Shown piece by piece: positions 8,803 to 28,254 of a DNA stretch of 36,161 nt. The stretch's first letter is position 1. The number at the start of each line of letters is the position of its first letter. A program made the translations under genes and the position numbers. The notes beneath the pieces are model-generated. The model saw nothing but the letters and a program-made list of their open reading frames with translations. It ran no database searches and was not told the DNA's origin. Source of the stretch: Steroidobacteraceae bacterium. Lineage in GTDB: Bacteria > Pseudomonadota > Gammaproteobacteria > Steroidobacterales > Steroidobacteraceae. The DNA is taken from positions 1 to 36,161 of the forward strand of contig DATFUG010000137.1 of assembly GCA_035261025.1 (NCBI GenBank), in the 5' to 3' direction.

Positions 8803-8803
8803 A

Positions 8804-10306
8804 TCAGACTGCCGCGGCCTTGCAGTGCCGGTCGATGAACTGCTGATGCATCGGCATCGCGTCGACGCAGTTGGCCACGATCATCTTGGCGTGGTCCATG
8901 AAGGTATAGAGATCGGCATCGCTCATCTGGTCAACCATCGGGTGATATCCGGCCGGCATGATGTGCTGTCCGATCATCACCTCCACCCAGCTCACCTGAC
9001 CAAACATTTCCTCCGCATTGCGAAAGAACCGGCCACTGTCCCTGAACAGCCGCACGGTGTCGGTGAGCGTCTCCGGTACGGGCATCGTCCGGCAGTAATT
9101 CCAGAACGGCGAGTCGTCGCGCTCGGTCGCGTGGTAGTGCATGATCAGGAAATCCCGGATCCGCTCGAATTCGAAGGTGCATTGCGCGTTGTAGCGGTCA
9201 ACGAGGACCTGGCTGATCTCACCGCCCGGAAACAGCAGCACCAGCTTGCCGATCGCCGATTGGATCAGGTAGATGCTGGTCGACTCCAGCGGCTCCATGA
9301 AGCCGCCGGCGAGGCCGACCGCCACGACGTTCCTGTTCCAGATCTTCCGGCGCTTGCCGGTCGTGAAGCGCAGCGGCCGGGGCTCAGCGAGGGCGCGCCC
9401 GTCGAGATTCCTGAGCAGGATGGCCGCGGCCTCGTCCTCGCTCATGAACTTGCTGCAGTACACGTGGCCGTTGCCGGTGCGATGCTGCAGCGGGATGCGC
9501 CATTGCCACCCGGCCGTGCGCGCGGTCGAGCGCGTATAGGGCGTCGGCGGACCGACCTTCTCGCAGGGCACCGCCAGCGCCCGGTCGCAGGGCAGCCAGT
9601 GGGTCCAGTCCTCGTAACCGGTATGCAATGCCTCCTCGATCAGCAGGCCGCGAAAACCGGAGCAATCGATGAACAGATCGCCACTGACGGCCTCGCCGCT
9701 CTCGAGCACCACGGCTTCGACGTAGCCATCGGTGGCGCGCAACCGGGTCTCGCGGATCTTGCCCTCGGTGCGCACCACGCCGCGCGCCTCGGCGTAGCGG
9801 CGCAGGTAGCGCGCGTACAGCCCGGCGTCGAAGTGGTAGGCATAGGCGACGTCGGCCAACGGCGAATTCTTCGGTGCGTCGCTGGCCGAGACCATGAATT
9901 TCTCGCGCGGCGCTGCCACCGTGTTGAGCGAGTAGTCGCCGAGTTCGGCCGCCCGGCCCGCCAGGCGGGCGCGCAGCCAGTAATGGTGGAACGGTATCGA
10001 GCCCAGGTCGTGTCCCAGGGTGCCAAAGCCGTGGATGTAGGTATCCCCGATGCGCCCCCAATCCCTGAACTGGATACCCAGCTTGAAGGTGCCCTGGGTC
10101 TGCCGGATGAATTCGGCCTCGTCGATCTCCAGCATCTTGTTGAAGTGGGACAGGTGCGGCACGGTCGCTTCGCCGACACCGACGATACCGATCTCCTCGG
10201 ATTCGACCAGGCGCAGCGCGTAGGTCTTGCCGAAAGTCTTGGCGAGCGCACAGGCGGCCATCCAGCCGGCGGTACCGCCCCCTACGATGACGATGTTCTT
10301 GATCAA
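8804..10306 (-). CDS. Flavin-dependent (tryptophan-type) halogenase family protein
   Basis: Track ORF 8804..10333. Motifs are IVIVGGGTAGW (GxGxxG), VGVGEATVPHL, GTFKLGIQF (conserved Lys), GWQWRIPL (WxWxIP) and GFMEPLESTSI (conserved Glu). The track start is a TTG at 10331-10333 inside the U-tract of the upstream terminator. I prefer the next in-frame TTG at 10304-10306, but the start is uncertain by 27 nt. Confidence 0.8.
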   Translation of the reverse strand: MIKNIVIVGGGTAGWMAACALAKTFGKTYALRLVESEEIGIVGVGEATVPHLSHFNKMLEIDEAEFIRQTQGTFKLGIQFRDWGRIGDTYIHGFGTLGHDLGSIPFHHYWLRARLAGRAAELGDYSLNTVAAPREKFMVSASDAPKNSPLADVAYAYHFDAGLYARYLRRYAEARGVVRTEGKIRETRLRATDGYVEAVVLESGEAVSGDLFIDCSGFRGLLIEEALHTGYEDWTHWLPCDRALAVPCEKVGPPTPYTRSTARTAGWQWRIPLQHRTGNGHVYCSKFMSEDEAAAILLRNLDGRALAEPRPLRFTTGKRRKIWNRNVVAVGLAGGFMEPLESTSIYLIQSAIGKLVLLFPGGEISQVLVDRYNAQCTFEFERIRDFLIMHYHATERDDSPFWNYCRTMPVPETLTDTVRLFRDSGRFFRNAEEMFGQVSWVEVMIGQHIMPAGYHPMVDQMSDADLYTFMDHAKMIVANCVDAMPMHQQFIDRHCKAAAV

Positions 10307-10323
10307 CCTGTTGGACCTGCACG

Positions 10324-10353
10324 AAAAAAACAAAGCCCGCAGGGCGGGCTTTG
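10324..10353 (-). terminator. Rho-independent terminator downstream of the TonB-dependent receptor gene
   Basis: Arms 10331-10340 (caaagcccgc) and 10344-10353 (gcgggctttg) form a 10-bp GC-rich stem with a 3-nt loop. On the minus strand the stem is followed by seven U (10324-10330). It sits about 50 nt after the TBDR stop. Confidence 0.8.
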
Positions 10354-10404
10354 TCGTATCGCCATTGCTGACGCCAAGTGTACTCCCCGGTGCTTAAACC
10401 CGGA

Positions 10405-13400
10405 TCACCACTTGAAGCCCACCGTCATCTTCAGCGTCCTCGTCACGCCAATGATCGGCCCGCTGGTGTTGTACGCCGGTTGATTTGGATAATTGTACGA
10501 GGCCGCCGTTGAGTCAAAGTTCTGCGCGTTGAGGAGGTTGAGCACATCCAGGCGCACGTAACCACTCATGTTCTGGGGCAGATCGAAGCTTTTCGTCACC
10601 TGCATGTCCACGCTCTGGTAACCAAACAGGACATTGCCGACGGCGTCCGCGACCGGATAGGCGTTGGTCCCGAAGGCATTGCAGGAGGTCCCATTGGCGA
10701 AGCCCAGCTGGCTACACCCGGCAATCGTGGTCACGGGAATCGGCGTCGCCAGCGTCAGCTTGCCGGCAAACAACAGGCCCCATGGACCATCGACGCTGCC
10801 CGTGGCGACCATCCTGTGCCTGGCCACCGCACTCGAGAGCGTGAAGGGGTAGTCCGCGATGTGCGGCAGGTCGAAGCCATAGCCGTCCGTAAACAGGCGG
10901 TTCTGCTTCGCGTCGGTGAAGGTATAAGCAAACGTTGCACCCCAATGCGATTCACGCGTATAGGGCTTCTCCGCAGAGACCAGGAGTTCGGTCGTGCGCG
11001 TCTCCTGACCGTTCTCCCACAGCACGAGGTTGCTCTGCAGGCCCGGCAGGCCGGCGGAGCACCACTGCGCGGGTGAGCCGCCCCAGTCCAGGCCGCAGCC
11101 GCGCGTGGCAAAGCTGCCGTCGGCGTAGCGGTTGCCCAATACGCCCAGCAACCCTTCGTAGCTGTTGATGCGCGTCAGCGTGACGCTGGTGTTCCAGTCG
11201 CCGACCTTGTTGCGTATGCCAAGGCTGAACTGGTCTGAATAGGGCACCTTCAGATTGTTCGGGAACATGTTCGCTTCGCCGCCGGGAGCGCCCAGTCCCT
11301 GCAGATTGGCCGCGTTCAGGTACATGGGATTCCAGTCCAGGCAGGTTGTCCCGTTCGCGTCGCCAGGCGGCAGCGCGGCCGGCCCGCCAGGCACGATGCA
11401 GTTGTTGTAACTGTATTTGCCACCCGTGAAGTTGATCGTCGGCTCCGACAGGGCGTTCTTCGAATTCTCGAGCTGCAGCTTGTCGAACAGATTGCGGTCA
11501 TAGGCGCGGCCCACACCGCCGAACACCACGTGCTTCTCATCGGCGTTGATGTCGTACGAGAATCCCAGGCGCGGCGCGACCTCGCCGGCGGGCGTCTTGC
11601 GATTGCTCCCGGTGCTGATGTAATCGTTGATGTTGATGCCGCCAAGCGCCAGCGCGTCAGCATAGGTCTCGCCCGGCGTCGGCCGGGGCAACTGCAGGGC
11701 TGGATTCGCGTTGACGCCCGGATCCGGATACGGCTGCTGGAGCGCCGTGAGGATCCGATCGAGCGTCTTGTAGTTCTCGAACGACGGCGTGACTTCGTAG
11801 TCATAGCGGATACCGAGGTTCAGCGTCAGGTGCTGGTTGACCGCCCAGTCGTCCTGGAAGTAAATGCCAATCTGCTTGTTGTCCGACTTCGAGGTCAGCG
11901 GCAGGCCGAAGCTGGCCTTGCCAAACACCACCTGGAACGGGGTCGCCTGTGTGCCGCTCGCATCGACCGCGTACCAGTACTTGGCTGCTTCGGACCCGTC
12001 GCGCGCGACGAGCTGCACGCCCTTGTACTTGACGCCCATCTTCAGCGTGTGCTCGCCCATCCAGTGCAGGTTGCTGAACGTCAGGTCGTCCTGGATGCCC
12101 CAGCCGTCCTGGTGCTTGTCGGTGTACTGGCGCGGATCCGCACCGTTGATGGTGATGATGTCCTGGCGGAACTGACCGGCGTTGCCAAAGTAGGTGTAGG
12201 TGATCCCGGGATTGCCGTTGAGCGGCGTCGGGAGGTCGACGGTTTTTTCGTAGAGGGCCATCATTTCATTGACCCAGCGATCGCTGCTGTGCTGCCAGCG
12301 CAGATTCACGCGGGTGTCTTCGTTCTTGAAGTTGAAGCCCGCCGACACCGCCACGTTGCCGGACCCGCCCTGGACTTCGGTCTCACGGCGCAGCTTGGTG
12401 CTCAGCTCGATGCGGTCGCTATCGCTCGGTTCCCAGTCGACCTTGGCGAAATAGAGATTTTCCTTGAACGGGGTCGCGCTCGGACCAAACTGCTCAAACA
12501 CACCCGCGGGCAACAGGGTGGCCAGCGGTATGCCGGCGAGGCTCCCATCGGGATTGACGGTGGTCGGCAGCGTGAAGTCCTTGTGCTCCCAGGTGACGAA
12601 ATAATGCATCGCATCCATGATGATCGGGCCGCCGACGGCCAGACCGTACTCGGTATTCGCGGACTTGACCTTGGCACCCCCGGCGGCGTCTTCGGACGGC
12701 GTGGCGGCACGCAGCGACTCGTTGGTGTAGTCGCCGAACAGCTCGCCGTGGAGGGTATTCGTGCCCGACTTCGTCTGCGCCGTGATCGCGGCGCTGGAGA
12801 TCTGGTCGTATTCCGCCTTGTAGTTCGAGGTGATGACCTTGTACTCACCGATGGCGAGCTGGGGGAAGGGGTTGCCAGGATCGCCATTCCCGTTCGGACC
12901 GGCCTGGCCGGAGATGCCACCCGTCTTGACGTAGTTCTTCTGGCCCACGCCGTCGATGAACACGTTGATGGCGCTGTTGGCCTGCGCACCGCTCTGGATC
13001 GAGGTGTTGCCCCGCGTGTCGACGCTGAACACCATGCCCGGCACGGTATCGGCGAACTCCAGGAAGTTGCGCGTGATCTGCGGGGTGGTCTCGATTTGAT
13101 GCAGCGACACGGTCGAGCCAATTTCAGAGGTCTTGACCTCAACCAGGCGTGTCGCCCGGACGATGATCTCCTCCAGCGTACCGGTCGCTTCCACCCCGCC
13201 CGCGCCCAGATCGAGGGTCGCCGTGGATGCGACGCTCAGCGTCACGGTCTGTTCAGTGCCTGGACCGGCATCGACGCGGTAGGTGCCCGAGGGCAGGCCG
13301 GCCAGGGCGTAGGTGCCATCGGCACCCGCCGTGGTGCGGCGCGTGGCGCCCGTGGCGATATTCTTCGCCGTGATCTGGCTGTTGGCGGCGGCCGTTCCGC

Positions 13401-13521
13401 GCAGGGTGGCATCGGCCGTCTGTGACCAGACGATCGACGGGACGAAGGCGGTCGACGCCAGCGCCGTCGCAAACACCGATCCGTACACTTTCTTCTTGCT
13501 GTTGCGATACCGCTTCTTCAT
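10405..13521 (-). CDS. TonB-dependent receptor with N-terminal carboxypeptidase-regulatory-like domain (Oar-like TBDT)
   Basis: Track ORF of 1038 aa with a signal peptide. DGTYALAGLPSGTYRV matches a CarboxypepD_reg-like fold, LEEIIVRATR is TonB-box/plug-like, and a long beta-barrel follows, ending in an aromatic residue (GFKW). A strong SD (GGAAGGA) lies 4 nt before the ATG. Confidence 0.9.
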   Translation of the reverse strand: MKKRYRNSKKKVYGSVFATALASTAFVPSIVWSQTADATLRGTAAANSQITAKNIATGATRRTTAGADGTYALAGLPSGTYRVDAGPGTEQTVTLSVASTATLDLGAGGVEATGTLEEIIVRATRLVEVKTSEIGSTVSLHQIETTPQITRNFLEFADTVPGMVFSVDTRGNTSIQSGAQANSAINVFIDGVGQKNYVKTGGISGQAGPNGNGDPGNPFPQLAIGEYKVITSNYKAEYDQISSAAITAQTKSGTNTLHGELFGDYTNESLRAATPSEDAAGGAKVKSANTEYGLAVGGPIIMDAMHYFVTWEHKDFTLPTTVNPDGSLAGIPLATLLPAGVFEQFGPSATPFKENLYFAKVDWEPSDSDRIELSTKLRRETEVQGGSGNVAVSAGFNFKNEDTRVNLRWQHSSDRWVNEMMALYEKTVDLPTPLNGNPGITYTYFGNAGQFRQDIITINGADPRQYTDKHQDGWGIQDDLTFSNLHWMGEHTLKMGVKYKGVQLVARDGSEAAKYWYAVDASGTQATPFQVVFGKASFGLPLTSKSDNKQIGIYFQDDWAVNQHLTLNLGIRYDYEVTPSFENYKTLDRILTALQQPYPDPGVNANPALQLPRPTPGETYADALALGGININDYISTGSNRKTPAGEVAPRLGFSYDINADEKHVVFGGVGRAYDRNLFDKLQLENSKNALSEPTINFTGGKYSYNNCIVPGGPAALPPGDANGTTCLDWNPMYLNAANLQGLGAPGGEANMFPNNLKVPYSDQFSLGIRNKVGDWNTSVTLTRINSYEGLLGVLGNRYADGSFATRGCGLDWGGSPAQWCSAGLPGLQSNLVLWENGQETRTTELLVSAEKPYTRESHWGATFAYTFTDAKQNRLFTDGYGFDLPHIADYPFTLSSAVARHRMVATGSVDGPWGLLFAGKLTLATPIPVTTIAGCSQLGFANGTSCNAFGTNAYPVADAVGNVLFGYQSVDMQVTKSFDLPQNMSGYVRLDVLNLLNAQNFDSTAASYNYPNQPAYNTSGPIIGVTRTLKMTVGFKW

Positions 13522-16428: not shown

Positions 16429-16938
16429 TCACGGTTTGATGCAGGCGGTGGCGCAGATGGCGTGGGCGACGTAGCCGGCAGCCGTGACAAAAGCCCGGCC
16501 CGCCTGGTCCATCCGCGCCGTTTGGGGATCTATGCCTTCCGAGATGATGCCGCCGTCCCAGGGACTGGCCAGCAGGATGCCGAGCGCGCGCTCATGTGAG
16601 CGCTTGAGCAGCAATTCGTCGGCCAGCATCCACGAAGTCGTGAACGGGAGGCGATAGCTCCCGGGCAGACCGTAGGGACTGCCGGCATAGGAATAGGGAT
16701 AGGCCGGCGGGTGCAGCCAATCGTAGGTGCGGGCGAACAGGGGATCGGTCTCGGCAATGGACTGCAGGGAGGGCAGTTTCATCAGCGAGCCGGGTGGAAT
16801 CTCGGTCTCGACGTAATGCCCGCCGTCCGTGGCGATGACATCATCGGGCCGCAACGCCAGAGGCGTGCGGTGCGGCGCACCGGCGGCATGGGCAGCCGCG
16901 TGACTCAGACCCATCAACAGAAGAAACTTCCAGCGCAT
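16429..16938 (-). CDS. Small secreted hypothetical protein (169 aa)
   Basis: Track ORF 16429..17001 trimmed to ATG 16936-16938, giving the signal peptide MRWKFLLLMGLSHAAAHA. It ends 23 nt before the GH39 start on the same strand. I could not place it securely in a family; see the findings. Confidence 0.5.
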   Translation of the reverse strand: MRWKFLLLMGLSHAAAHAAGAPHRTPLALRPDDVIATDGGHYVETEIPPGSLMKLPSLQSIAETDPLFARTYDWLHPPAYPYSYAGSPYGLPGSYRLPFTTSWMLADELLLKRSHERALGILLASPWDGGIISEGIDPQTARMDQAGRAFVTAAGYVAHAICATACIKP

Positions 16939-16981
16939 GAAATCCACTATTCTTCGCCCTCGGCAATTATGGCAGCTCGGA

Positions 16982-17003
16982 TTTTCATTGCGCGTTTTCA
17001 TTG
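16982..17003. repeat. Direct repeat ttttcattg (x2, 13-bp period) in the divergent intergenic region between the small ORF/GH39 and GH31
   Basis: Read directly: ttttcattg at 16982-16990 and at 16995-17003. The span tcattgcgcgttttca (16985-17000) contains one CGTTTTCA half-site resembling the LacI operators. Confidence 0.6.
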
Positions 17004-17027: not shown

Positions 17028-19520
17028 ATGCATCGACCTGATCTTGGAACTCGCAGCATCCTGCTGGTGCTGCTGTGCTCCTGCCTCGCCTCCGGAATGG
17101 CCGGTGCCGATTCGGGCGCCACAGTCACCGTGCGCGGCGATGGCGCCGATGCCCAGTCCGGCGCCCTGCGCATGAGAGTCGATGCCCTGGCCGACGATCT
17201 GCTGCGCGTGCGGATCGCGCCGGCCGGCACTTTCCCCGAGGATGCTTCCTGGGTCGTTCCGCCCGCGCTGCGCGCGCAGCGGGTCAGCGTGCAACCGTGG
17301 AACGAGACTGATGCCGCGGGTTTCCGCACCGCCGCGCTGTCAGTCCGGATCGAGCGCGCGCCCTTGCGCCTGATCGTCAAGAATCTGCAGGGCCAGGTTG
17401 TGTCTGCGGACGCGTTGCAGGAAGCCGTGGAGCTGCACGGCCCCGCCTTTACGCTGCACAAGCAGCTGCCGGCGACGGAGCACTATTTCGGGCTGGGCGA
17501 CAAGACCGGTCCGCTGGACCGCCGCGGCGAGTCCTTCGTCAACTGGAACACGGATGCCTTCGGATTCCAGGAATCGACCGATCCGATCTACAAGAGCATT
17601 CCCTTCTTCGTCGCGAGCGGGGGGAGCGCCGGCAGCTACGGCCTCCTGCTGGACAACACCTGGCGGAGCTGGTTTGACTTTGGCAGGCAGGATCCCGGGA
17701 TGCTCTCCTTCGGTGCCGCGGACGGGCCGATTGACTACTACCTGATTTACGGACCTGCGCTGAGCCGCGTGGTCGAGCGCTACACCGACCTGAGCGGCAA
17801 GGCGCCGCTCGCGCCGCAGTGGGCGCTCGGCTTCCAGCAGTCGCGCTACAGTTACATGAGTGCCGCGGAAGTGCGCGGCATCGCCAACCGCATGCGCGCC
17901 GAACGCATCCCGGCCGATGTGATCTGGATGGACATCGACTACCAGGACCGCAACCGGCCCTTCACCACCAACAAGGCCACCTTTCCCGACCTGCCGGGAC
18001 TCGCGCGGGACGTCGGGCGACAGGGCATACACCTGATCGCCATCACTGACCTGCACGTTGCGGACGCACCCGGCGAGGGGTACGCGCCCTACGACAGCGG
18101 TGCCGCCGGCGATCATTTCCTCAAGCTTGCCGACGGTTCGACCTACGTGGGGACCGTGTGGCCCGGCCTCACGGTGTTTCCTGAATTCACCGCGGAGCGC
18201 TCGCGCGACTGGTGGGGTACTCTGTACCGGAACTTCATGGCGGACGGCATCGCCGGCTTCTGGAACGACATGAACGAGCCGGCCATTTTCCGCACGGCCA
18301 GCAAGACCATGCCACCCGATGTCCGGCATCGCATCCAGGAGCCCGGGTTCGCTGCGCGCATCGCCACGCATGCCGAGATTCACAACATCTATGGCATGGA
18401 AAATTCCCGCGCCACTTTCGAGGGCATGCGCCGCCTGGCGCCCGATGAGCGACCCTTCGTCATGACGCGCGCCAGCTTTGCCGGCGGCCAGCGCTATGCC
18501 GTGACCTGGACCGGAGACAACAGCTCGACCTGGAATCACCTGAAGCTGTCCATCTCGATGCTGCTTAACCTGTCCTTAAGCGGCTTCAGCTACAGCGGCG
18601 CCGACGTCGGCGGCTTCCAGGGCGCGCCGAGCGCGGACCTGCTGACCCGCTGGATGGAAATTGCCGCCTTCACGCCGGTGTTCCGCGCGCACTCGTCCAA
18701 TGACTCGACCCGCAGGGAACCGTGGATCGACGGCCCGCGGCACACGGCGATCCGCCGCCATTTCATCGAGGAGCGCTACCGGCTGATGCCCTACCTCTAT
18801 GCGCTGGCCGACGCGAATGCGCGCACCGGCGCGCCCCTGATGCGGCCCGTGTTCTACGACTATCCCGAGGCCTTGCAGGGGCCCTGCGACCAGTCGAGCA
18901 CCTTTATGCTCGGAGACCGGCTGCTGGTCGCGCCGCCGCCGAATTTCGAGTCGCCCGCGGCCTACAAGATCTGCCTGCCCGCGGGCGGCTGGTACGACTA
19001 CTGGAGCGGCGCGCGGGCCGATCCGCTGCAAGTCGTGAACGCCACGGGGGCGTCCGGCGCCACGGCGCAGACCGTCAGCGCGGTGCCGTCACTGGCCAGC
19101 CTGCCGGTGTACGTGCGCGCCGGCACGATCCTGCCGCGCCAGCCACTGGTGCAGAGCACGGCGGACAAGCCGCAGGGCCCGCTGTCACTGGAAATCTATC
19201 CGGGCGATGACTGTCACGGCGTGCTGTATGCCGACGACGGGCACACCCTCGGCTACCAGCGCGGTGGCTACCTGCGCCAGGAGCTGCGTTGCTCGGCGAG
19301 CGCCGATGAGCTGAAGATCCGGTTCGAAGCGCGGAGCGGCGACTTCCATCCCTGGTGGGCACAGCTGCAGATCCACGTCCACGGGTGGCGCGGCGCTGCG
19401 AGCGCGACCATCGCCGGGAGCACGGTCGCCACGCACGCGGACGCCAGGAATCAGGTCCTGACGCTGACAATCGCCGATCAGGCCACCCCGGCCGAGCTGG
19501 TGATCCGTCGGGGCTCTTAG
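17028..19520 (+). CDS. GH31 family alpha-glucosidase/alpha-xylosidase, secreted
   Basis: Track ORF 17001..19520 begins at a TTG. It is trimmed here to ATG 17028, which is preceded by GGGGGA. Signal peptide is MHRPDLGTRSILLVLLCSCLASGMAGA. The nucleophile motif is GFWNDMNEP and the acid/base region is WTGDNSSTW. Confidence 0.85.
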   Translation: MHRPDLGTRSILLVLLCSCLASGMAGADSGATVTVRGDGADAQSGALRMRVDALADDLLRVRIAPAGTFPEDASWVVPPALRAQRVSVQPWNETDAAGFRTAALSVRIERAPLRLIVKNLQGQVVSADALQEAVELHGPAFTLHKQLPATEHYFGLGDKTGPLDRRGESFVNWNTDAFGFQESTDPIYKSIPFFVASGGSAGSYGLLLDNTWRSWFDFGRQDPGMLSFGAADGPIDYYLIYGPALSRVVERYTDLSGKAPLAPQWALGFQQSRYSYMSAAEVRGIANRMRAERIPADVIWMDIDYQDRNRPFTTNKATFPDLPGLARDVGRQGIHLIAITDLHVADAPGEGYAPYDSGAAGDHFLKLADGSTYVGTVWPGLTVFPEFTAERSRDWWGTLYRNFMADGIAGFWNDMNEPAIFRTASKTMPPDVRHRIQEPGFAARIATHAEIHNIYGMENSRATFEGMRRLAPDERPFVMTRASFAGGQRYAVTWTGDNSSTWNHLKLSISMLLNLSLSGFSYSGADVGGFQGAPSADLLTRWMEIAAFTPVFRAHSSNDSTRREPWIDGPRHTAIRRHFIEERYRLMPYLYALADANARTGAPLMRPVFYDYPEALQGPCDQSSTFMLGDRLLVAPPPNFESPAAYKICLPAGGWYDYWSGARADPLQVVNATGASGATAQTVSAVPSLASLPVYVRAGTILPRQPLVQSTADKPQGPLSLEIYPGDDCHGVLYADDGHTLGYQRGGYLRQELRCSASADELKIRFEARSGDFHPWWAQLQIHVHGWRGAASATIAGSTVATHADARNQVLTLTIADQATPAELVIRRGS

Positions 19521-22345
19521 TCTTTCAGTTGAAAATTGACGGCAAATACTTTGACGGAATCCGCGGCCTTGCCCGCCCTTTCCGCCGGCAGGAATTCAAT
19601 CGTCTCCGCATAGCGCTGTGCGGCGTCGTCAAGCAGCGCGGAGCCCGAAGAGAAGGCAATCGCGAACTTGAGCGCGCATCCGGTCGCCGACACCTGGGCG
19701 GATACGAGGACGCGACCCTCCTCATACAGTTGCCGACTGAGCTCGGGATAGAACTCCCCGGGCGATCGCGGCATCGCGCCAAACTTGGCTCCGACGGAAT
19801 TGGAGGTGTGGGTGGCTGGCGCCGGACAGGGCGTCAGTCGTGCATGATAGTCAGCGTCGCTCACTGTCATGCTGTGCGCCGCCTCTTTGCGCTCCCGTTG
19901 ATAGGCATCCAGCAACTGGTGAGCGAATGTAATCGAGGTCTCGGAAGGCTCACCGCTGCCCAGCACATCCATCAGGGCCTTCTCAGCGGTCAGCACTTCC
20001 TGACTGTGCGGCGTATTTTCGGGCATACGATTGCGCGCCAGGAATGATCCCCACAAGTCCCGGTTGTGCCTCAGGGCCGGCACTGCGGTCCAGTAGGTGA
20101 AGATCGTTTTCGTGCGCCGCAGATAATCCTGCTCCAGCGCCTCGGCATCCGCCCCGGGGGCGAGAAATTGGACCTCGATGCGGGTCATCATTTCCTGCAG
20201 ATCTTCGCTCGGCAAGCGGCCACGCAGATCCCGGCCAAAAGAACTATCGGCCTGTTTGGACTTCTCAAGCAGCGGTCGGGCCAGGCTGTCGAAGGCTTCC
20301 CCCAGCGTCGAAGCGAGCGGCTGCGCCGGCACGACGCTCTCCCCAGGACCCTTCTCCAGGATCTGGGCGACGGATGAAAGCTTTTGCACCAGCTGCACCC
20401 AATTGCCGAGCAGTGCTTCATCTTCGAAATGCAACGACACGCCGTAAAGCAGCTCGGTCGAAACCAATCCCGCCTTTTTACCCGGGGCATCCACGATGAC
20501 CGACACTTCGGAGATCGTGGCGGTCCGGCGGTTCCACCGTCCGCTGTAGGGATCGCGGCGGTTACGCATATCATCAAAAGCACTGCGCAAATCAAGCCTG
20601 GCGGTCGGCGGCGGGCGAAGCCGGCGCCAGAGCCCGAGCTTGACTTTCCGTTGTGCGTCCTTATTCCACCAGGCTTCCTCAAGGTCCCAGAGTACCTGGT
20701 CCCCGTCCGGGACAAATCCCATGGTCAGGGTCAGCACACTCCTGTTATCCAGTGCCAATACGCTCGACGGTACGGTGAACGAAAATCTCCTGCCACGCAG
20801 TGACCATTCCGGGGAGCTGCTCAGGGTGACGTCCGTCAAGGCTTTGGGCAGCCACGCGCTGCGCGCGAAGTAAGCGCGCCATTGCGCCAGTGTACCGGTG
20901 TACGAGACGTCAATCTGGTTGGCCAGGAGGTGGAGACGCTCCTCCGAAATCGCACGGATCGAGGAAGGCACATACAGGATGAGTGCGCAGTAGCCATCTG
21001 GCGTGGGCAGCAACAGGCTCTCCAGGTAGAAATCCATGAAGGGGATAGCCCAGACCCGTTGCTGCCATTTTCGACCGTAGCGGTCCACGTACATCGTGTC
21101 GCTGAGTGCTGCGCCCAGAGAAGTGACGCGCACCTGATCCGTGCCGACGGGGCGTCGCAGATTCAACCCCTTCAGGGCGAGATCCATGAATGCTCTGGAA
21201 TTCGCAAACAAGGCGTCGTCCGCCGCGTTGTCCGAACGCACCAGGCGAAGCAATACGGCGCCGGAGACATTCGCTACGCTGACCGAACCATCGCCGGGAA
21301 GGTCTGTCGCCGTGTAGTACGGTGCCGTCGCGCTCCAGCTGCCATCGTCCTGCTGCTCGATCAGTCGTGGCCGGAAATCGTTGGCTTCAGGCGCGTAAAG
21401 CACGGCTTCGGAGCCGCTGCCCTTCGGGAACAGCGTATCGGCATAGGTCTTCAGCAAGCGCTCGCGCGAGGCATCTTCATGGCGCGCGATGACCGTCCGA
21501 TAGTTGCGCGCAAATTCGGTCCAGGACAGCGGCAGATTGAATCCGTCCTGGAATATGTAGGTCTGTGTCCCGTGCAGATACGGCAGGCTGATCAGCCGCC
21601 GATCATCGAAGCGCGCCTTGTGCTCCGGCGCCTCCAGGACCTGGGAGATGGGCAGCGAGTAGTTCAGGTTCTCATTGGGTGACTTGCCAATCACGATGCC
21701 GATGACGCGCCCCTGTGCGTCGAGGAGCGGCCCGCCGCTATTGCCGGGTGAAGCTGCCGCGGAAAAGCGGATCCACTTCCAGCGGCCATCCTGCTCTTCC
21801 GCGGTGGCCGAGGTGTAGAGCCCGTCACGAATCACGATGCCTTCGCCCAGGGCATTGCCCACCGCCATCACAGGATCATCGATCTGCGGCTGCTGATTGG
21901 TGTCGAGCCCGGGCGGAGCCGGATCGATCTGCACGGAAAAAACCACAAAATCCTGATACGAGGAAAACTTCAGAATCCGGTCGATGGCGTAGACCGAGCC
22001 GTCCGTGCGCCGTAGCGCGGGGCTCCCGTATTGGCTGTCCATTCCGGCGAGCAGGACATGCGCCGCCGTTACGTAGGTGTTGGACCCCAGGGCAAAGGCG
22101 GTGCCGACGGCCTGGTACGCATCCGTACGCTCGATATAAGGCAGCAACTCGAGTGGCAACGGCTTTTCGTAAGTGAGCGGATCCTTCTCCGGCTTCTTCA
22201 TCACCACTTCAAAGGTGCTGGCCCGGATGGAATGCTGCAGTTCGGGGGTCGGACCAGCGGCGCGCAGCGGACAGGCTGTCAGCCACAGGGCCGCCCCTAG
22301 TGCAGGAATCCCCAGGCGGCGGCGGTCAGCGCAAATGAAGCGCAA
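19517..22345 (-). CDS. Multidomain lipoprotein: N-terminal S1 (trypsin-like) serine protease, about 550 aa of unassigned sequence, and a C-terminal TonB_C-like domain
   Basis: Track ORF of 942 aa. The N-terminus MRFICADRRRLGIPALGAALWLTAC has a lipobox (LTAC). The catalytic triad context is VTAAHVL, QDFVVFSV and SPGNSGGPLLD. The C-terminus FYPELSRQLYEEGRVLVSAQVSATG...IAFSSGSALLDDAAQRYAETIEFLPA matches the TonB C-terminal domain pattern. Confidence 0.75.
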   Translation of the reverse strand: MRFICADRRRLGIPALGAALWLTACPLRAAGPTPELQHSIRASTFEVVMKKPEKDPLTYEKPLPLELLPYIERTDAYQAVGTAFALGSNTYVTAAHVLLAGMDSQYGSPALRRTDGSVYAIDRILKFSSYQDFVVFSVQIDPAPPGLDTNQQPQIDDPVMAVGNALGEGIVIRDGLYTSATAEEQDGRWKWIRFSAAASPGNSGGPLLDAQGRVIGIVIGKSPNENLNYSLPISQVLEAPEHKARFDDRRLISLPYLHGTQTYIFQDGFNLPLSWTEFARNYRTVIARHEDASRERLLKTYADTLFPKGSGSEAVLYAPEANDFRPRLIEQQDDGSWSATAPYYTATDLPGDGSVSVANVSGAVLLRLVRSDNAADDALFANSRAFMDLALKGLNLRRPVGTDQVRVTSLGAALSDTMYVDRYGRKWQQRVWAIPFMDFYLESLLLPTPDGYCALILYVPSSIRAISEERLHLLANQIDVSYTGTLAQWRAYFARSAWLPKALTDVTLSSSPEWSLRGRRFSFTVPSSVLALDNRSVLTLTMGFVPDGDQVLWDLEEAWWNKDAQRKVKLGLWRRLRPPPTARLDLRSAFDDMRNRRDPYSGRWNRRTATISEVSVIVDAPGKKAGLVSTELLYGVSLHFEDEALLGNWVQLVQKLSSVAQILEKGPGESVVPAQPLASTLGEAFDSLARPLLEKSKQADSSFGRDLRGRLPSEDLQEMMTRIEVQFLAPGADAEALEQDYLRRTKTIFTYWTAVPALRHNRDLWGSFLARNRMPENTPHSQEVLTAEKALMDVLGSGEPSETSITFAHQLLDAYQRERKEAAHSMTVSDADYHARLTPCPAPATHTSNSVGAKFGAMPRSPGEFYPELSRQLYEEGRVLVSAQVSATGCALKFAIAFSSGSALLDDAAQRYAETIEFLPAERAGKAADSVKVFAVNFQLKD

Positions 22346-22865
22346 TCGCGTCGCCCAGCCGGTGCAATCCGCCGGAGACGTCGACCAGCCGCCCGTTTAC
22401 AAACAGGCCCGGGGACGTGCGCACGTGGCTGCGGATCGCCCCATCGACCTGCTCGCGCACGCGCTGGCGGTAGATCTCATCGTCCAGGGCGGCGGTGAAC
22501 TGTGCGAGATCCAGCCCCAGCTCGGCGGCGTAGTCGTGCAACGCCCGGCGTTCCAGTCGTGCCGCCTGGCGCAACAGCAAATCGTGCATCTCCCAGAATT
22601 TACCTTCCGCGCCCGCCGCTTCGGCGGCTTCGGCGGCCATCAGCGCATGGGGATGAGCACTCTCGACCGGAAAGTGCCGATAGATCAGTCTCAACGTCGT
22701 GGGATGCTGGTCGAGCAGCATGCGTACGCCCGGCTCCGCCGCACGGCAGATCGGACACTCAAAATCGCCGTACTCCACCACGGTGATTCGCGCCTCGGGT
22801 GAGCCGCGCACGTGATCGGTGGGACCTATCGGTACTTTCAGGTCCTGGCCCGGTGGTTCGGTCAT
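22326..22865 (-). CDS. DsbA-family thioredoxin-fold protein (CPIC active site)
   Basis: Track ORF 22326..22901 trimmed to ATG 22863-22865, with SD GGGAG 6 nt upstream. It has VVEYGDFECPICRAAEP, FPVESAHPHA, GKFWEMHDLLL and SPGLFVNG, a DsbA-like/Thioredoxin_4 pattern. No signal peptide is evident. Its 3' end overlaps the protease gene start by 20 nt. Confidence 0.75.
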   Translation of the reverse strand: MTEPPGQDLKVPIGPTDHVRGSPEARITVVEYGDFECPICRAAEPGVRMLLDQHPTTLRLIYRHFPVESAHPHALMAAEAAEAAGAEGKFWEMHDLLLRQAARLERRALHDYAAELGLDLAQFTAALDDEIYRQRVREQVDGAIRSHVRTSPGLFVNGRLVDVSGGLHRLGDAIALHLR

Positions 22866-22939
22866 CGGTGACTCCCGACGGTTGAAGGGTAACTTTCGCA
22901 AAAATCATGCGCCGGCGGGGTATGGGATGCAATGTGCAT

Positions 22940-24370
22940 TCAGCGGGGAACAGCGGATCGGGCCGCCGTCTCGGGCGCCAGGCGCGCCCGTTCGTACACG
23001 GCCTCGAGAAAGGCGGCGTGACTCCAGCCGATACCGCGCGAGGACGCCGGCCGGCCGGTGCGCTTGTCGATCTGCTCGTACATCTGCCCGTCTGCCGGCG
23101 TGCTGAGCTGCAATCTCATCATGATGCGATCGGCCTTGCGCGTGAAGGCCGCCATCGCCTCCCGATTCAATGCCGAGCCAGGCGACAGGTTCGTCCCGGG
23201 CATGGCAGACCGCAGGAAGGCGGCATTGCGCGCCGTCACGGCCAGACTGGCGCCCGCCTCCAGGCGCGCCGCCAACCGGTAGTAGAAACGGGCAAAATCC
23301 GCCGTGATGAACACCCAGGGATTGCCGCCGTAGTACACGTCTCCGGCGTAGCGCCCGTAGCCGAGCCCGACATCGCTGCGATGATTGATCGGGTAGCTCG
23401 AGCGGAACAGCTCCTCGAACACGGCCACGCTCGCCTGCACGCGATCGTCGAGCACCGAGTGCGCCGCCGAGTTCCGGTCCGCGTCGACGACCGCCACGAT
23501 CACTTCGGCATCCAGGTCGGTCTTCTTGGCCGTGTAGCCGTCGGTCGCCACTATGGCCAGTTGCGAGCGGAGGAAGCCGCGGGTGGGATCCCAGTGATCG
23601 TCCAGCAGCGGCTCGAGGCGCTGCGCCACGTTCCGGTACTTCGCCACGCGCTCGGCCGGCGCGCCGTGCCGCTCCAGCCAGTCCGCCCCCTGCTCGAGCG
23701 CGGCGAGCTGGACCAGGCGCGTGTGGTAACTGTCGGCCACCAATTCTTCCCAGGCATCGAAGCCGCGCTGGTTCCAGACGCTCGCCACGAAATCAAGATC
23801 GGCCCCGAGGACTGTCGTCGCGAGTGCTTCGAGATCGGGACGGGCAAGTTGGGCCGCCTCGGCCGCACGCAGGAAATCCACGACCGCCAGAACGCGCAGG
23901 GCCGGACCGTCGAACTGCGGACGTGACCACGGGAGCGAATCGAGCTCACCGGTCACCGTGTAACGCGGCTCACCCAGCCCATACTTCGAAGGCAGGGCCT
24001 GCAGGCGCTGCGTGAGTGTGAGGAAATCCGTGAATTGTCTTTCGAACAGGCTGCGGCTGGCATAGGGACGGCGGAGCGCAAAGGCGTCCGCCGCCGCGTG
24101 CATCACCAGCGAGGAATCGCGTATCCAGTGAAAGTAGTAGTCGGGATCCTTTTTCTGCAGGGCGCCCACGACGATGCCGGGAAGGGGCGGCGGCTCTCCG
24201 GGGCGCTTCGGTTCCCGCGGGGAAATGTTCTCCAGCATGTGCTGCCAGGAGTGCTGTTCCTGCTGCACCAGCCAATCGGGCAGCGGAACCGGCGCGGCGG
24301 CGCCCGCACCGCGCCAGAGGCAGGCCAACAGCAGGGCCCAGGAAAGGCGATCGACAGGGCGGCGCTTCAT
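22940..24370 (-). CDS. GH15 glucoamylase-like glycoside hydrolase, secreted
   Basis: Track ORF 22940..25243 trimmed to ATG 24368-24370 (in frame, 477 codons): MKRRPVDRLSWALLLACLWRGAGAAAP. It has DYYFHWIRDSSLV, RPQFDGPALR, GFDAWEEL (general acid region) and MYEQIDKRTG...GWSHAAFLEA (general base region). Confidence 0.8.
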   Translation of the reverse strand: MKRRPVDRLSWALLLACLWRGAGAAAPVPLPDWLVQQEQHSWQHMLENISPREPKRPGEPPPLPGIVVGALQKKDPDYYFHWIRDSSLVMHAAADAFALRRPYASRSLFERQFTDFLTLTQRLQALPSKYGLGEPRYTVTGELDSLPWSRPQFDGPALRVLAVVDFLRAAEAAQLARPDLEALATTVLGADLDFVASVWNQRGFDAWEELVADSYHTRLVQLAALEQGADWLERHGAPAERVAKYRNVAQRLEPLLDDHWDPTRGFLRSQLAIVATDGYTAKKTDLDAEVIVAVVDADRNSAAHSVLDDRVQASVAVFEELFRSSYPINHRSDVGLGYGRYAGDVYYGGNPWVFITADFARFYYRLAARLEAGASLAVTARNAAFLRSAMPGTNLSPGSALNREAMAAFTRKADRIMMRLQLSTPADGQMYEQIDKRTGRPASSRGIGWSHAAFLEAVYERARLAPETAARSAVPR

Positions 24371-24412
24371 CTGGGCGAGTTTATGCTCTGTTAAGATCCA
24401 AGGGAGACAGAA

Positions 24413-25567
24413 ATGGCTGTGGACCGGGAGATTTCGATGCGCAGACCGACCATCCATTCGTGGTTGCCGCTTTGCGTCGCACTGTGCGCGGCCGTCACCA
24501 GCGCGCCGGCGGTGGCGCAACTGAAAACACGCAATGTGGTGCTGATTGTGTCCGACGGCCTGCGCTGGCAGGAAGTCTTCACGGGCGCGGACCGGAGTCT
24601 GCTCGACGATCCCAAGAGCGGCATGTGGGAGAGCGCAGCCAGTCTCAAGAAACGCTTCTGGGATGATTCTCCGGCCGCGCGCCGCCGGCTGCTCATGCCC
24701 TTCATGTGGGACGTGATCGCGAAGCAGGGTCAGCTGTTCGGCAACCAGGAGGTGGGCAGCATCGCCCGCGTGACCAACGGCGTGGCGTATTCCTATCCCG
24801 GCTACAACGAGATGCTGACCGGGCACCCCGACCCGCGCATCGACCGCACCGACATCGACGGCAACAACTATGGGCCGAACCCGAACGTGACGGTTTTCGA
24901 GTGGCTCAACCAGCAACCGGGCCTTGAGGGCAAGAGCGCCGTGTTCGGAAGCTGGACCTGGTTTACCGACGTCTTCAACGAAGCGCGGAGCCATCTGGAC
25001 ATGCGGGTGGGATCCAGGCTGCCACCCACGCCCAATCCGACGCTGCGCCAGGCGCTCCTTGAACGGCTCTATCGCACAACCACGGCGCAGGAAGAGGGCG
25101 AAGTTCCGGATGCCTTCGTGCAGGCCCGCTTGCTGGATTACCTGGAGACGAACCATCCCCGGGCGCTGTTCGTGGGCTATGGCGAGACCGACGACTGGGG
25201 ACACGCCGGACGGTACGATCTGCTCCTGGAGGCCGTGCACCATCTGGATCTATTTGTGCACGAACTGTGGGATACGATGCAGTCCATGCTTCAATACCGC
25301 GGCCAGACCACCTTCATCATCACGGCCGATCACGGGCGCGGCAGCGGCCTGGTGGACTGGAAAGAGCACGGCGTCGGGCAGAAGGGATCGGAGAATATCT
25401 GGATCGCGACGATCGGCCCGGACACGCCGCCGCTGGGCGAGCGGCACGGCGCGCCGGCCGTCGAGCAGGCGCAGATCGCGGCCACGATCGCGGCCCTGCT
25501 GGGCCAGGACTATCGCGCGGCGGTGCCGCTCGCGGCGCCTCCCCTGCCGGTGTTGCCCGGGAACTGA
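24413..25567 (+). CDS. Alkaline-phosphatase-superfamily metalloenzyme (phosphodiesterase/pyrophosphatase-like), secreted
   Basis: Track ORF of 384 aa, with SD GGGAG 7 nt upstream of the ATG. The signal peptide ends ...TSAPAVAQ. VVLIVSDGLRW, GYGETDDWGHAG and FIITADHGRG fit the metal-ligand pattern of the AP/NPP superfamily. Confidence 0.65.
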   Translation: MAVDREISMRRPTIHSWLPLCVALCAAVTSAPAVAQLKTRNVVLIVSDGLRWQEVFTGADRSLLDDPKSGMWESAASLKKRFWDDSPAARRRLLMPFMWDVIAKQGQLFGNQEVGSIARVTNGVAYSYPGYNEMLTGHPDPRIDRTDIDGNNYGPNPNVTVFEWLNQQPGLEGKSAVFGSWTWFTDVFNEARSHLDMRVGSRLPPTPNPTLRQALLERLYRTTTAQEEGEVPDAFVQARLLDYLETNHPRALFVGYGETDDWGHAGRYDLLLEAVHHLDLFVHELWDTMQSMLQYRGQTTFIITADHGRGSGLVDWKEHGVGQKGSENIWIATIGPDTPPLGERHGAPAVEQAQIAATIAALLGQDYRAAVPLAAPPLPVLPGN

Positions 25568-27043
25568 TTGTCTACATCGGCATCGAGCGTGGCTGCGGAA
25601 ACCGGAATCCTCGCGTACGGTGCCTACGTGCCGCAGCGGCGCCTGCAGCGCGCCGCGATCTGTGCGGCGCACGCCTGGTTTGCACCGGGCCTGAAGGGGC
25701 TGGCACGCGGTGAGCGCGCCGTGGCGGACTGGGACGAAGACAGCATTACGATGGCCGTGGAGGCGGCGCGCGATTGTCTCACCGGCATCGATCGCACCAC
25801 GATCGGCTCGCTCTCCCTCGCCTCCACGACCCTGCCCTTCGCTGACCGCCAGAACGCGGGCATCGTCAAGGAGGCGCTGAACCTTGCCGACGCTGTGAGC
25901 GTGCTCGACGTGACGGGCAGCCAGCGCGCCGCGACCTCCGCGCTGATTCAGGCGCTGCACGCCGCGGCTGGGGCAGGACGGCCGCAGCTGTGCCTGGCCT
26001 CCGACCGGCGCAACGCGCGAGCGGCCTCCGAGGCCGAACTGATCCAGGGCGACGCCGCGGCGGCCGTGCTCGTCGGCGCGGGCGATCCCATCGCGCGCCT
26101 GCTGGGTACGCACAGCGTCAGCATCGATTTCGTCGATCACTTCAGGGCTGCCGGTGAGCCGCTGGACTATGCGTGGGAAAGCCGCTGGATCCGCGACGAG
26201 GGCCATATTGCCCTCGTGGGCCGGACACTCGCCGAGGGCCTGAAGCGCTTCGGCGTCGCGGCGGGCGCAATCGATCGGCTGGTGATTCCACTCCCGAACC
26301 GCGGCGTGGCCGAAACCATTGCCAGGGCCGCGGGGTGCCGTGCGGAATCCGTCGCGGACAACCTGGTCGAGACGGTCGGGGACAGCGGCGTCGCCCACCC
26401 GCTGCTCATGCTGGCGAGCGCACTCGAATCCGCGCGCCCGCATGAGAAGCTGCTCATGATCGGCTTCGGCCAGGGCTGCGATCTGCTGCTTTTTGAAACG
26501 ACCGCGGCGATTGGGCGCGCAGCGCGGCGCGCGCCGGTCGCCGCCTCGCTGGCGCGCCGGCAACCGGACGAGAATTACCTGCGCTTCCTGTTCCATCGCG
26601 GGCTGCTCGAGCTCGAGCGCGGCATGCGCGCGGAAGCGGAGCAGAAACAGCCCGGCACGACGCTGTACCGCAACCGTCGGGCCGTGCTGGGCCTCCTCGG
26701 CAGTCGCGATACGCGCACGGGCGCCGTGCAGTATCCGCCCGCCGAGTTGTCCGTGCATACGGGCGAGCCCACGGCCGGAAGCCATGAGGACTATCCCCTG
26801 GCCGACCGCGCAGGACGCATCGTGAGCTACACGGCGGACCGGCTGGCGTACTCACCCTCGCCACCGCTGTACTACGGGGTGATCGACTTTGAAGGCGGCG
26901 GACGCCTGGTGACTGAATTCACCGACGCCAGCAGCGGATCGATCGCGGTGGGCCGGACGGTGCGGATGATGTTTCGCATCAAGGGGATCGATGAGCTGCG
27001 CCATTTCACCAAGTACTACTGGAAGGCCGCACCGGTCCGGTAG
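25568..27043 (+). CDS. Fusion protein: HMG-CoA synthase/PhlA-like thiolase-fold domain (catalytic residues apparently replaced) plus a C-terminal DUF35-like OB-fold
   Basis: Track ORF of 491 aa with a TTG start directly abutting the upstream TGA; an alternative GTG lies at 25589. GILAYGAYVPQRRL and DWDEDSITMAVEAARDCL are typical of archaeal-type HMGCS-like proteins. The C-terminal about 130 aa (AVQYPPAE...GRIVSYTAD...YYGVIDFEGGGRL...VGRTVRMMF) resembles DUF35. Confidence 0.7.
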   Translation: MSTSASSVAAETGILAYGAYVPQRRLQRAAICAAHAWFAPGLKGLARGERAVADWDEDSITMAVEAARDCLTGIDRTTIGSLSLASTTLPFADRQNAGIVKEALNLADAVSVLDVTGSQRAATSALIQALHAAAGAGRPQLCLASDRRNARAASEAELIQGDAAAAVLVGAGDPIARLLGTHSVSIDFVDHFRAAGEPLDYAWESRWIRDEGHIALVGRTLAEGLKRFGVAAGAIDRLVIPLPNRGVAETIARAAGCRAESVADNLVETVGDSGVAHPLLMLASALESARPHEKLLMIGFGQGCDLLLFETTAAIGRAARRAPVAASLARRQPDENYLRFLFHRGLLELERGMRAEAEQKQPGTTLYRNRRAVLGLLGSRDTRTGAVQYPPAELSVHTGEPTAGSHEDYPLADRAGRIVSYTADRLAYSPSPPLYYGVIDFEGGGRLVTEFTDASSGSIAVGRTVRMMFRIKGIDELRHFTKYYWKAAPVR

Positions 27044-27054
27044 CCGGCGCAACC

Positions 27055-28254
27055 ATGGCAACAGGCATCAAGGACCGGGTCGCAATCCTCGGCATGGGCT
27101 GCGCGCGCTTTGGCGAGCGCTGGGACGCGAGCGCCGAGCAGCTGATGGTGGAGGCCTACACCGAGGCGCTCGCCGATGCCGGAATCGGCACGCCGCAGAT
27201 CGAGGCCGCGTGGCTGAGCGTGGCCTTCGATGCGCTCAATATCGGTCCTTCGGGCATTCCACTCGCCACGGCCCTGCGCCTGAAAGACATCGGAGCGACC
27301 AAGGTCGAGAATTACTGCGCGAGCGGCACCGAGGCCTTTCGCGGCGCGGTGTACGCCGTCGCCGCCGGTGCAGCGGACATCGCGCTGGCGCTCGGCGTGG
27401 AAAAACTGAAGGACACCGGTTACGCGGGTCTCCCGGTCCGCTCGCGCGGGACGACACTCGACATGATCGGCGTGAACGGCTCCGCGCCCGGGAACTTTGC
27501 CCAGCTGGCCGACGCCTACGGCGCGGTGCACGGCGTCAAGCGGACTGACCTGAAGCGCGCGATGGCCCATGTTTCTGTGAAGAGCCACGCCAATGGCGCG
27601 AAGAATCCGAAGGCGCATCTGCGCCGGGAAATCGACCTGGACACGGTCCTCAATGCGCCGATCATCGCCGAGCCGCTGGGACTGTATGACTGCTGTGGCG
27701 TCTCGGACGGCGCGGCCTGCGCGATCGTCACCACACCGGAGATCGCGCGCAGCCTCGGCAAGCGCGAACTGGTGGCGGTCAAGGCCCTGCAGGTCGTCAG
27801 CTCCAACGGCTGGGAAAGCCAGGCATCGGAGTGGAATGGCAGCTACCTGCACACGACACGCGTCGCTGCCAGGCGTGCCTATGCGGAAGCCGGCATCACC
27901 CGTCCGCGCGAGCAGCTCAGCATGCTGGAAGTGCATGACTGCTTCTCGATCACCGAGCTCGTGACGATGGAAGACCTGCACATCAGCGCGGTGGGGCGCG
28001 GCTGGACCGACGTGCTGGACGGCACTTTCGATGCCGACGGGGCGCTGCCCTGCCAGCTCGATGGCGGACTGAAGTGCTTTGGACACCCGATCGGCGCGTC
28101 GGGTCTGCGGATGCTGTATGAAAACTATCTGCAGCTGCTGGGCCGGGCCGGCGCACGCCAGCGCCGGCAGGCGCCCTCACTGGCGCTCAGTCACAACCTC
28201 GGCGGCATGCCGACGCAGAGCGTCAGTGCCGTGGCGATCATCGGCCTTGCTTAG
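27055..28254 (+). CDS. SCP2-type (archaeal/PhlC-like) thiolase
   Basis: Track ORF of 399 aa: MATGIKDRVAILGMGCARFGERW. It has the nucleophile motif ENYCASGTEAF, the HDCF motif (MLEVHDCFSITEL), GGLKCFGHPIGASG and SHNLGG. Confidence 0.85.
   Translation: MATGIKDRVAILGMGCARFGERWDASAEQLMVEAYTEALADAGIGTPQIEAAWLSVAFDALNIGPSGIPLATALRLKDIGATKVENYCASGTEAFRGAVYAVAAGAADIALALGVEKLKDTGYAGLPVRSRGTTLDMIGVNGSAPGNFAQLADAYGAVHGVKRTDLKRAMAHVSVKSHANGAKNPKAHLRREIDLDTVLNAPIIAEPLGLYDCCGVSDGAACAIVTTPEIARSLGKRELVAVKALQVVSSNGWESQASEWNGSYLHTTRVAARRAYAEAGITRPREQLSMLEVHDCFSITELVTMEDLHISAVGRGWTDVLDGTFDADGALPCQLDGGLKCFGHPIGASGLRMLYENYLQLLGRAGARQRRQAPSLALSHNLGGMPTQSVSAVAIIGLA

Follow-up and report, generated by a model that had tools for sequence, protein, structure and literature searches.

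An HtrA-type serine protease with a TonB_C C-terminus belongs to an uncharacterised protease family of soil Gammaproteobacteria

What role could a serine protease play that ends in a TonB_C domain, and does it act together with the genes beside it? The question is posed by a 942-residue product encoded on the minus strand of contig DATFUG010000137.1 (GenBank assembly GCA_035261025.1, Steroidobacteraceae bacterium), of which positions 1 to 36,161 were analysed; this stretch of 36,161 nucleotides (nt) is called the window below. The gene lies between a DsbA-like gene and a gene of glycoside hydrolase family 31 (GH31). Its product belongs to a real, conserved and uncharacterised family of soil Gammaproteobacteria that is not rare and shows no coupling to its neighbours. 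We consider it somewhat better than an even chance that the protein is a Sec-exported, soluble periplasmic serine endopeptidase of HtrA type, in which the TonB_C domain would act as a passive docking module for TonB-box-like strands.

The trypsin-like domain of the original prediction is intact. Pfam Trypsin_2 matches residues 81-217 (about nt 21695-22105; E 4.9e-18, 66.7 bits against a cut-off of 27.6), close to the interval first proposed, and the catalytic triad consists of His96 (22058-22060), Asp132 (21950-21952) and Ser203 (21737-21739), the serine lying within a GNSGGP motif. All three residues are invariant in an alignment of 104 relatives. In Foldseek, the full AlphaFold2 (AF2) model retrieves DegS-deltaPDZ, AlgW, MucD and HTRA1 with E values of about 1e-11 (DegS and AlgW at about 5e-12) and target template modelling (TM) scores of about 0.7. 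The best PDB sequence matches of the domain are RsgI9 (7sjy, E 4.7e-10) and Deg proteases. The NCBIfam model for MarP also matches the domain (E 4.1e-12), and the sequence scores far under the cut-offs of the NCBIfam HtrA families. A Pfam search of the 942-residue protein at E of 1 or below yields no PDZ family, the model of the middle region gives no PDZ fold match, and Pfam returns no match to Peptidase_M56 (PF05569) anywhere in the protein.

At the opposite end of the chain, the predicted TonB_C-type terminus is confirmed near its proposed position by two family models above their cut-offs: Pfam TonB_C (PF03544) at residues 865-940 (about nt 19526-19753; E 1.2e-8, 35.8 bits against 24.6), spanning profile positions 4-79 of 79, and NCBIfam TIGR01352 (tonB_Cterm; 36.8 against 27.1). 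Sequence comparison with the PDB aligns residues 859-938 to TonB2 (2k9k, E 3.9e-7) and to several further TonB chains, and the residue-level alignment with TonB in 9ddz and 9dc4 covers the whole domain, including its last strand. The TonB motifs YP (residues 866-867), EGxV and SSG..LD.AA are kept, with P867 at least 90% conserved; YP has been singled out as a motif conserved in functional TonBs (PMC10350073). In the AF2 model the domain folds, with predicted local distance difference test (pLDDT) values above 90, as a helix (862-872), two strands (877-885 and 891-898), a second helix (903-913) and a final strand (921-938). Two cysteines, Cys840 (19826-19828) in the lead-in segment and Cys890 (19676-19678) in the turn between β1 and β2, are 100% conserved. 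Since an invariant cysteine pair in an exported protein suggests a disulfide, the two probably form a periplasmic bridge that would pin the lead-in segment to the β1-β2 hairpin. A homology search with residues 740-942 returns only fragments from the same family and weak matches to ordinary TonB proteins, a result that has no bearing on other hosts of this module.

Between the protease and TonB_C lies the long unmatched region noticed in the original prediction, and it proves even longer than first estimated, at about 620 residues: residues from about 241 to 860 find no match in Pfam, NCBIfam or PDB sequences. The whole protein, modelled by AF2 with the family alignment (pLDDT 90.5, predicted TM score 0.72), is laid out as signal peptide (1-29), protease (44-240), an α/β part (243-662) and a helical bundle (679-821). 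Residues 241-835 modelled alone reach a pLDDT of 90.9, and a fold search with this model gives no PDB match at E of 1e-3 or below. A weak resemblance recurs to PsbP, CyanoP, DcrB and the two-domain immunity proteins Tli4 and TplEi of type VI secretion systems, with probabilities of 0.4-0.9 and target TM scores of 0.2-0.4, which makes it a lead and not an assignment. On this modelled resemblance, the middle domain may consist of two PsbP/DcrB-like sandwiches. With a pLDDT of about 91 and no significant PDB neighbour, it lends itself well to structure determination. The linker and helical bundle behind it are specific to the form bearing TonB_C and are missing from shorter family members. Within the bundle, residues 751-835 (19841-20095) carry the conserved motif YW..(V/Y)PAL.HNRD.W..FL.RN..P..TPH, in which Y751, W752, N772, E818 and R819 never vary and H780 hardly does; this motif may form an interface or a binding site. 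The features are collected in Table 1.

Table 1. Positions of the protease gene, its domains and its immediate surroundings in the window.
Feature	Position	Strand	Basis
Protease-TonB_C gene, 942 aa, TTG start, stop TAA at 19517-19519	19517..22345	-	ORF and domain calls
Signal peptide, aa 1-29	22259..22345	-	Family motif comparison
HtrA-like (S1C) protease domain, aa 44-240	21626..22216	-	Pfam Trypsin_2, triad, Foldseek
Family-specific middle domain, aa 241-662, mixed α/β	20360..21625	-	AF2, HMMER, no family match
Poorly conserved linker, aa ~663-750, and conserved helical bundle, aa ~750-835	19841..20359	-	Conservation profile, AF2
TonB_C domain with N-terminal lead-in, aa 836-942	19520..19840	-	Pfam, NCBIfam, PDB, AF2
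DsbA-like/Thioredoxin_4 gene, 179 aa, CPIC at 22746-22757	22326..22865	-	Pfam, start analysis
Variable slot between DsbA-like and GH31 genes	19521..22325		blastn breakpoints, gene tables
aa, amino acids; ORF, open reading frame.

The wider family was delineated by a homology search of 5.8 billion proteins, from which the 120 best matches were taken. Nearly all of these are about 890-1080 residues long, 48-68% identical and equipped with both Trypsin_2 and TonB_C, a few being truncated gene calls. Most belong to Steroidobacteraceae, several of them from metagenome-assembled genomes, and the names among them are automatic ones only ('TonB family protein' or 'serine protease Do'). The architecture had been put forward as rare and without earlier characterisation. 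The first part falls, as more than 120 clusters share it; the second stands, and literature searches on the combination of S1/Trypsin_2 with TonB_C, or on Steroidobacter, retrieved no relevant paper. With one genome scanned for each GTDB species, 264 relatives are found. Among the 87 loci fetched, 26 include the TonB_C part and 61 end near query residue 600-670. Such short forms of about 640-680 residues, comprising signal peptide, protease and middle domain, occur in cultured Dyella, Rhodanobacter, Frateuria and Fulvimonas.

HMMER, run exhaustively with residues 241-662, finds the middle domain in 454 clusters at 50% identity; in the full-length proteins listed it begins at about residue 220-310, always directly behind the S1 domain. 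The family falls into length classes of about 660, about 940 and 1100-1445 residues. Arrays of tetratricopeptide repeats (TPR) form the tails of the longest class (1100-1445 residues), ankyrin repeats that of an 884-residue form, and a divergent member of 1002 residues again bears TonB_C. The catalytic serine motif and a hydrophobic N-terminus are kept in every length class. As judged from these alignments, the family core is a signal peptide, an S1C protease and a middle domain of about 420 residues, followed by an exchangeable protein-binding module at the C-terminus; the helical bundle and TonB_C tail are a Steroidobacteraceae addition to this core. Two full-length homologs lie on short contigs binned far outside the gammaproteobacterial range of the family, one as Candidatus Baltobacteraceae (L015) and one as Gemmatimonas (L030), which may reflect mis-binning or horizontal transfer. 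On a 5-Mb Steroidobacteraceae-like contig (L001, 6285-14389), a pro-kumamolisin/S53 peptidase gene lies upstream of the homolog; two genes downstream stand a gene for a 688-residue protein with TonB_C as its sole Pfam match and then a Ser/Thr kinase gene.

Export of the protein is read from its N-terminus. The start is placed at TTG 22345, as no other canonical start in the junction DNA keeps the family-conserved signal peptide. The public gene call, of 894 residues from M49, drops this signal peptide together with the conserved TPELQ...FEVV segment (22199-22345), likely a start-site mis-annotation arising from the TTG start. The signal peptide consists of an n-region RRR, an h-region IPALGAALWLTA that contains no His, and a probable signal peptidase I site LRA/AG (the slash marking the cut), the window reading LRA/AGPTPELQ. 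Nearly all of 112 relatives place AxA directly ahead of the mature N-terminus (A/G)(V/L)(T/S)PELQ. The product was first taken for a lipoprotein. An LTAC pattern does exist at residues 22-25, and the column of Cys25 holds Cys in 31% of relatives, but lipoprotein status does not hold: a lipobox occurs in only two of the 112, the other 110 lacking it with AxA conserved. From its motifs, export proceeds by a signal-peptidase-I-type signal peptide, and the reading that suits the family best is a soluble product processed by signal peptidase I. The gene has a GC content of 61.6%, the lowest among the window genes measured. A scan of 19300-23100 for promoters and terminators, uninformative at 65% GC, returned none. 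The convergent protease and GH31 genes overlap in their stop codons: TTAG at 19517-19520 contains TAA of the minus strand and TAG of the plus strand, which leaves neither intergenic space nor a terminator between the two.

The lipobox formed part of a larger proposal, in which a lipoprotein S1 protease would be co-translated and paired with the DsbA-like oxidoreductase and act on nearby TonB-dependent glycan uptake. The DsbA-like reading frame is open over 22326-22901, its likely start being ATG 22865, six bases after a GGGAG Shine-Dalgarno sequence, and the product matches Thioredoxin_4 (E 1.2e-22) and DSBA (E 7.5e-16) in Pfam, with NCBIfam in agreement; the first CxxC is CPxC in 110 of 120 DsbA-like relatives. 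If the protease starts at TTG 22345, the described 20-nt overlap of the two genes stands (22326-22345, the DsbA-like stop being 22326-22328) and, on this contig, makes it likely that they are transcribed together. Also in agreement with the proposal are the many glycoside hydrolases of the window and its Oar-class TonB-dependent transporter (TBDT). The absence of a signal peptide in the DsbA-like protein, already suspected, is upheld: 36 hydrophilic residues precede CPIC, 118 of the 120 relatives have no hydrophobic N-terminus, and lengths cluster at 177-179 residues. A huge family so uniformly close to 178 residues and signal-less marks the protein as cytoplasmic, and with an exported protease the two reside in different compartments. 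No relative of the DsbA-like, GH15 or GH31 proteins occurs in the flanks of about 6-8 kb around homologs (0 of 87 loci). No neighbour of the family recurs in more than 12 of 83 loci, the cases found reflecting synteny at the Rhodanobacter/Dyella level, and five homolog neighbourhoods inspected singly all differ. The functional coupling to the DsbA-like gene, and likewise the link to the TBDT/glycan cluster, are thus not sustained.

Syntenic contigs put the adjacency of the two genes in context. Contigs whose DsbA-like proteins are 85-88% identical share a frame of Metalloenzyme, (GH15), DsbA-like, slot, GH31, GH39, LacI and TBDT genes. In blastn comparisons identity is 81-89% on either side of the slot and breaks exactly at 22326/8 and 19509/20. 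In place of the protease gene, on the opposite strand, one contig (L088, slot 7541-8677) holds a SIMPL gene and two others (L090, slot 7541-8348, and L091) a DUF2846 gene. The DsbA-like and protease genes stand side by side, in the same order, in just a single very close relative, L092; its DsbA-like protein is 98% identical, and its DNA is 87% identical over window positions 19551-27341. The L092 slot (5040-9052) contains the protease gene followed by NikA-like and DUF6036 genes, a pair that hints at mobile-element traffic. The n-region of the L092 protease differs and its GTG starts lie beyond the DsbA-like stop, downstream of it, so the gene overlap is not fixed. The same contig shows, at about 5640-5670, a deletion of about 13 residues and a frameshift right after GNSGGP, and its GH31 gene is split in two; these defects are either assembly indel errors or two pseudogenes.

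As judged from synteny, the DsbA-like gene belongs to the conserved frame and is not a conserved partner of the protease, and their adjacency is a feature of one sub-lineage within a hypervariable slot, a local accident. The pairing of a lipoprotein protease with the oxidoreductase is therefore largely refuted by the comparative data, and we regard it as most unlikely. Low GC, the hypervariable slot and the NikA-like and DUF6036 genes of L092 are suggestive of horizontal acquisition of the protease gene, not conclusive.

With the neighbours set aside, the question of function turns to the C-terminal domain. The lack of a membrane anchor, of a proline-rich spacer and of any route to ExbB/ExbD argues that TonB_C is not an energy transducer here. 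Instead, it would bind an extended TonB-box-like strand by β-augmentation, as TonB does, and docking would bring the protease to TBDTs or to other proteins exposing such a strand. Once docked, the enzyme would serve quality control or turnover of the target, or cleave it for regulation. FhuA and FecA are bound at their TonB box by soluble TonB fragments that lack the anchor, and more tightly with ligand bound (PMC11658791). The presence of TPR or ankyrin modules at the same position in sister subfamilies lends indirect support to a role in targeting partners. Partner and physiological role, like the disulfide, are what we infer from these features.

Several points weigh against docking. The full-model Foldseek search, saturated by protease hits, returned HtrA-type protease domains only and no direct superposition of TonB_C, and so is silent on the other domains. 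Gln160 of E. coli TonB is apparently not conserved in the protease-TonB_C family, whose consensus places E/G three positions ahead of Y/W-P. The homolog loci identified no binding partner and revealed no conserved neighbour hinting at a substrate. Docking by strand pairing would further hinge on a free β3 edge of TonB_C. Finally, the short forms work without the C-terminal module, so TonB_C may only fine-tune localisation.

This last point leads to a reading in which TonB_C is a module for localisation, as a tether to the cell wall or outer-membrane zone, or for dimerisation, and the enzyme carries out general housekeeping proteolysis in the periplasm. C-terminal fragments of TonB, when isolated, form strand-swapped dimers, and HtrA-type proteases, among them the matched DegS, DegP and DegQ structures, act as oligomers. 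Short forms are the majority, consistent with a self-sufficient core, and no conserved substrate gene lies nearby. The TPR and ankyrin modules of the sister clades, however, are typical partner-binding scaffolds and not wall anchors, the canonical TonB-box-binding motifs are retained, and a review that gives peptidoglycan binding for ExbD mentions none for TonB (PMC11658791). On balance we consider this reading unlikely.

Another reading is a decoy, in which the domain would vie with genuine TonB for TonB boxes that are exposed, and so lower uptake, proteolysis being secondary. The C-terminal domain of TonB, when expressed in the periplasm, inhibits FhuA- and FecA-dependent transport in E. coli. 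The binding of soluble TonB fragments to TBDTs (PMC11658791) is in keeping with such competition, but the invariant triad and an enzymatic body of 800 residues point to proteolysis as the selected function, and there is no sign of regulated expression; a decoy is very unlikely.

A more elaborate version of docking makes the enzyme an occupancy sensor. TonB boxes exposed on ligand binding by the TBDT would recruit the protease to no transporters but those that are activated or misassembled. Its cut there would fall in the plug, in the N-terminal extension or in an associated anti-sigma or regulatory partner, and the protease would be gated by the middle domain, which would represent a new fold family. 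We hold this to be distinctly unlikely. If true, it would add a new route by which TBDTs are reset, turned over or made to signal, and would make the enzyme a candidate for the missing periplasmic protease of FecA/FecR-type signalling, a pathway whose protease or proteases have yet to be identified in E. coli (PMC12036975).

The window around the gene is a glycan-utilisation region, with genes for GH1, DUF2961, ABC permeases, a glucoamylase-like protein, a tryptophan-halogenase-like protein, the Oar-class TBDT, LacI, GH39, GH31 and GH15. The TBDT (10405-13521; CarboxypepD_reg and OMP_b-brl_4, 1038 residues) adjoins a Trp_halogenase-family gene (E 1e-201), the two occupying 8804-13521, and the LacI regulator lies just beyond it. 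Between GH39 and GH31, a reading frame of 190 residues on the minus strand (16429-17001) has no Pfam match.

A TBDT of this class raises the idea that the protease is itself cargo, secreted through an Oar-type transporter like Myxococcus PopC, with TonB_C as the recognition element for the transporter. Oar is required for the secretion of the PopC protease (PMC6434023), and the window TBDT has the Oar-class CarboxypepD_reg N-terminus. PopC, however, lacks both a signal peptide and TonB_C (PMC6434023), no TBDT gene is among the conserved neighbours of the family, and a multidomain protein of 100 kDa that probably contains a disulfide would make an improbable TBDT passenger. We give this idea almost no credence.

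Independently of mechanism, the automatic names now attached to the 454 clusters of this family are misleading. If docking is correct, it would mean proteolytic control of TBDTs in TBDT-rich soil Gammaproteobacteria, and we know of no earlier case of a TonB recognition module delivering an enzyme rather than transducing energy.

Four known systems frame the protein. The S1C-like domain of RsgI9 (7sjy) and MarP-type proteins share only the protease domain with it, and resemble it in placing an S1 domain within a regulatory, non-HtrA architecture; those proteins are membrane-anchored regulators of Gram-positive bacteria and actinobacteria. A second group joins a peptidase-family domain and TonB_C on one polypeptide, as here. 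Its M56 proteins sit in the membrane as metallopeptidase-like sensors, and their linkers are short. Examples are the TonB_C-Peptidase_M56 (BlaR1-like) fusions TonB1 and TonB10 of B. thetaiotaomicron, which are functionally uncharacterised (PMC10350073). The present protein, in contrast, is soluble, belongs to the serine proteases, has about 620 residues between its peptidase and TonB_C domains and occurs in Gammaproteobacteria.

TonB transducers themselves share the three sequence motifs named above. TonB C-terminal domains have a helix-β-β-helix-β topology, and the same order is seen here. The differences lie in the rest of the chain, which has a cleavable signal peptide and no S/H-motif anchor, carries an extra invariant cysteine pair, and in place of a proline-rich spacer consists of folded domains with high pLDDT over residues 44-835. 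Membership of the TonB family fails on anchor and spacer, so only the assignment of the TonB_C domain holds. The HtrA proteases DegS, DegP and AlgW (MEROPS S1C) are alike in Sec export, chymotrypsin fold, His-Asp-Ser triad and a fold TM score of about 0.7, and also in bearing a peptide-binding module at the C-terminus, with a presumed role in recruiting or sensing substrates. Membership of the HtrA group fails on PDZ, whose place is taken here by a family-specific domain of about 420 residues, a helical bundle and TonB_C; in this arrangement, TonB_C would play the part that PDZ has in DegS and DegP.

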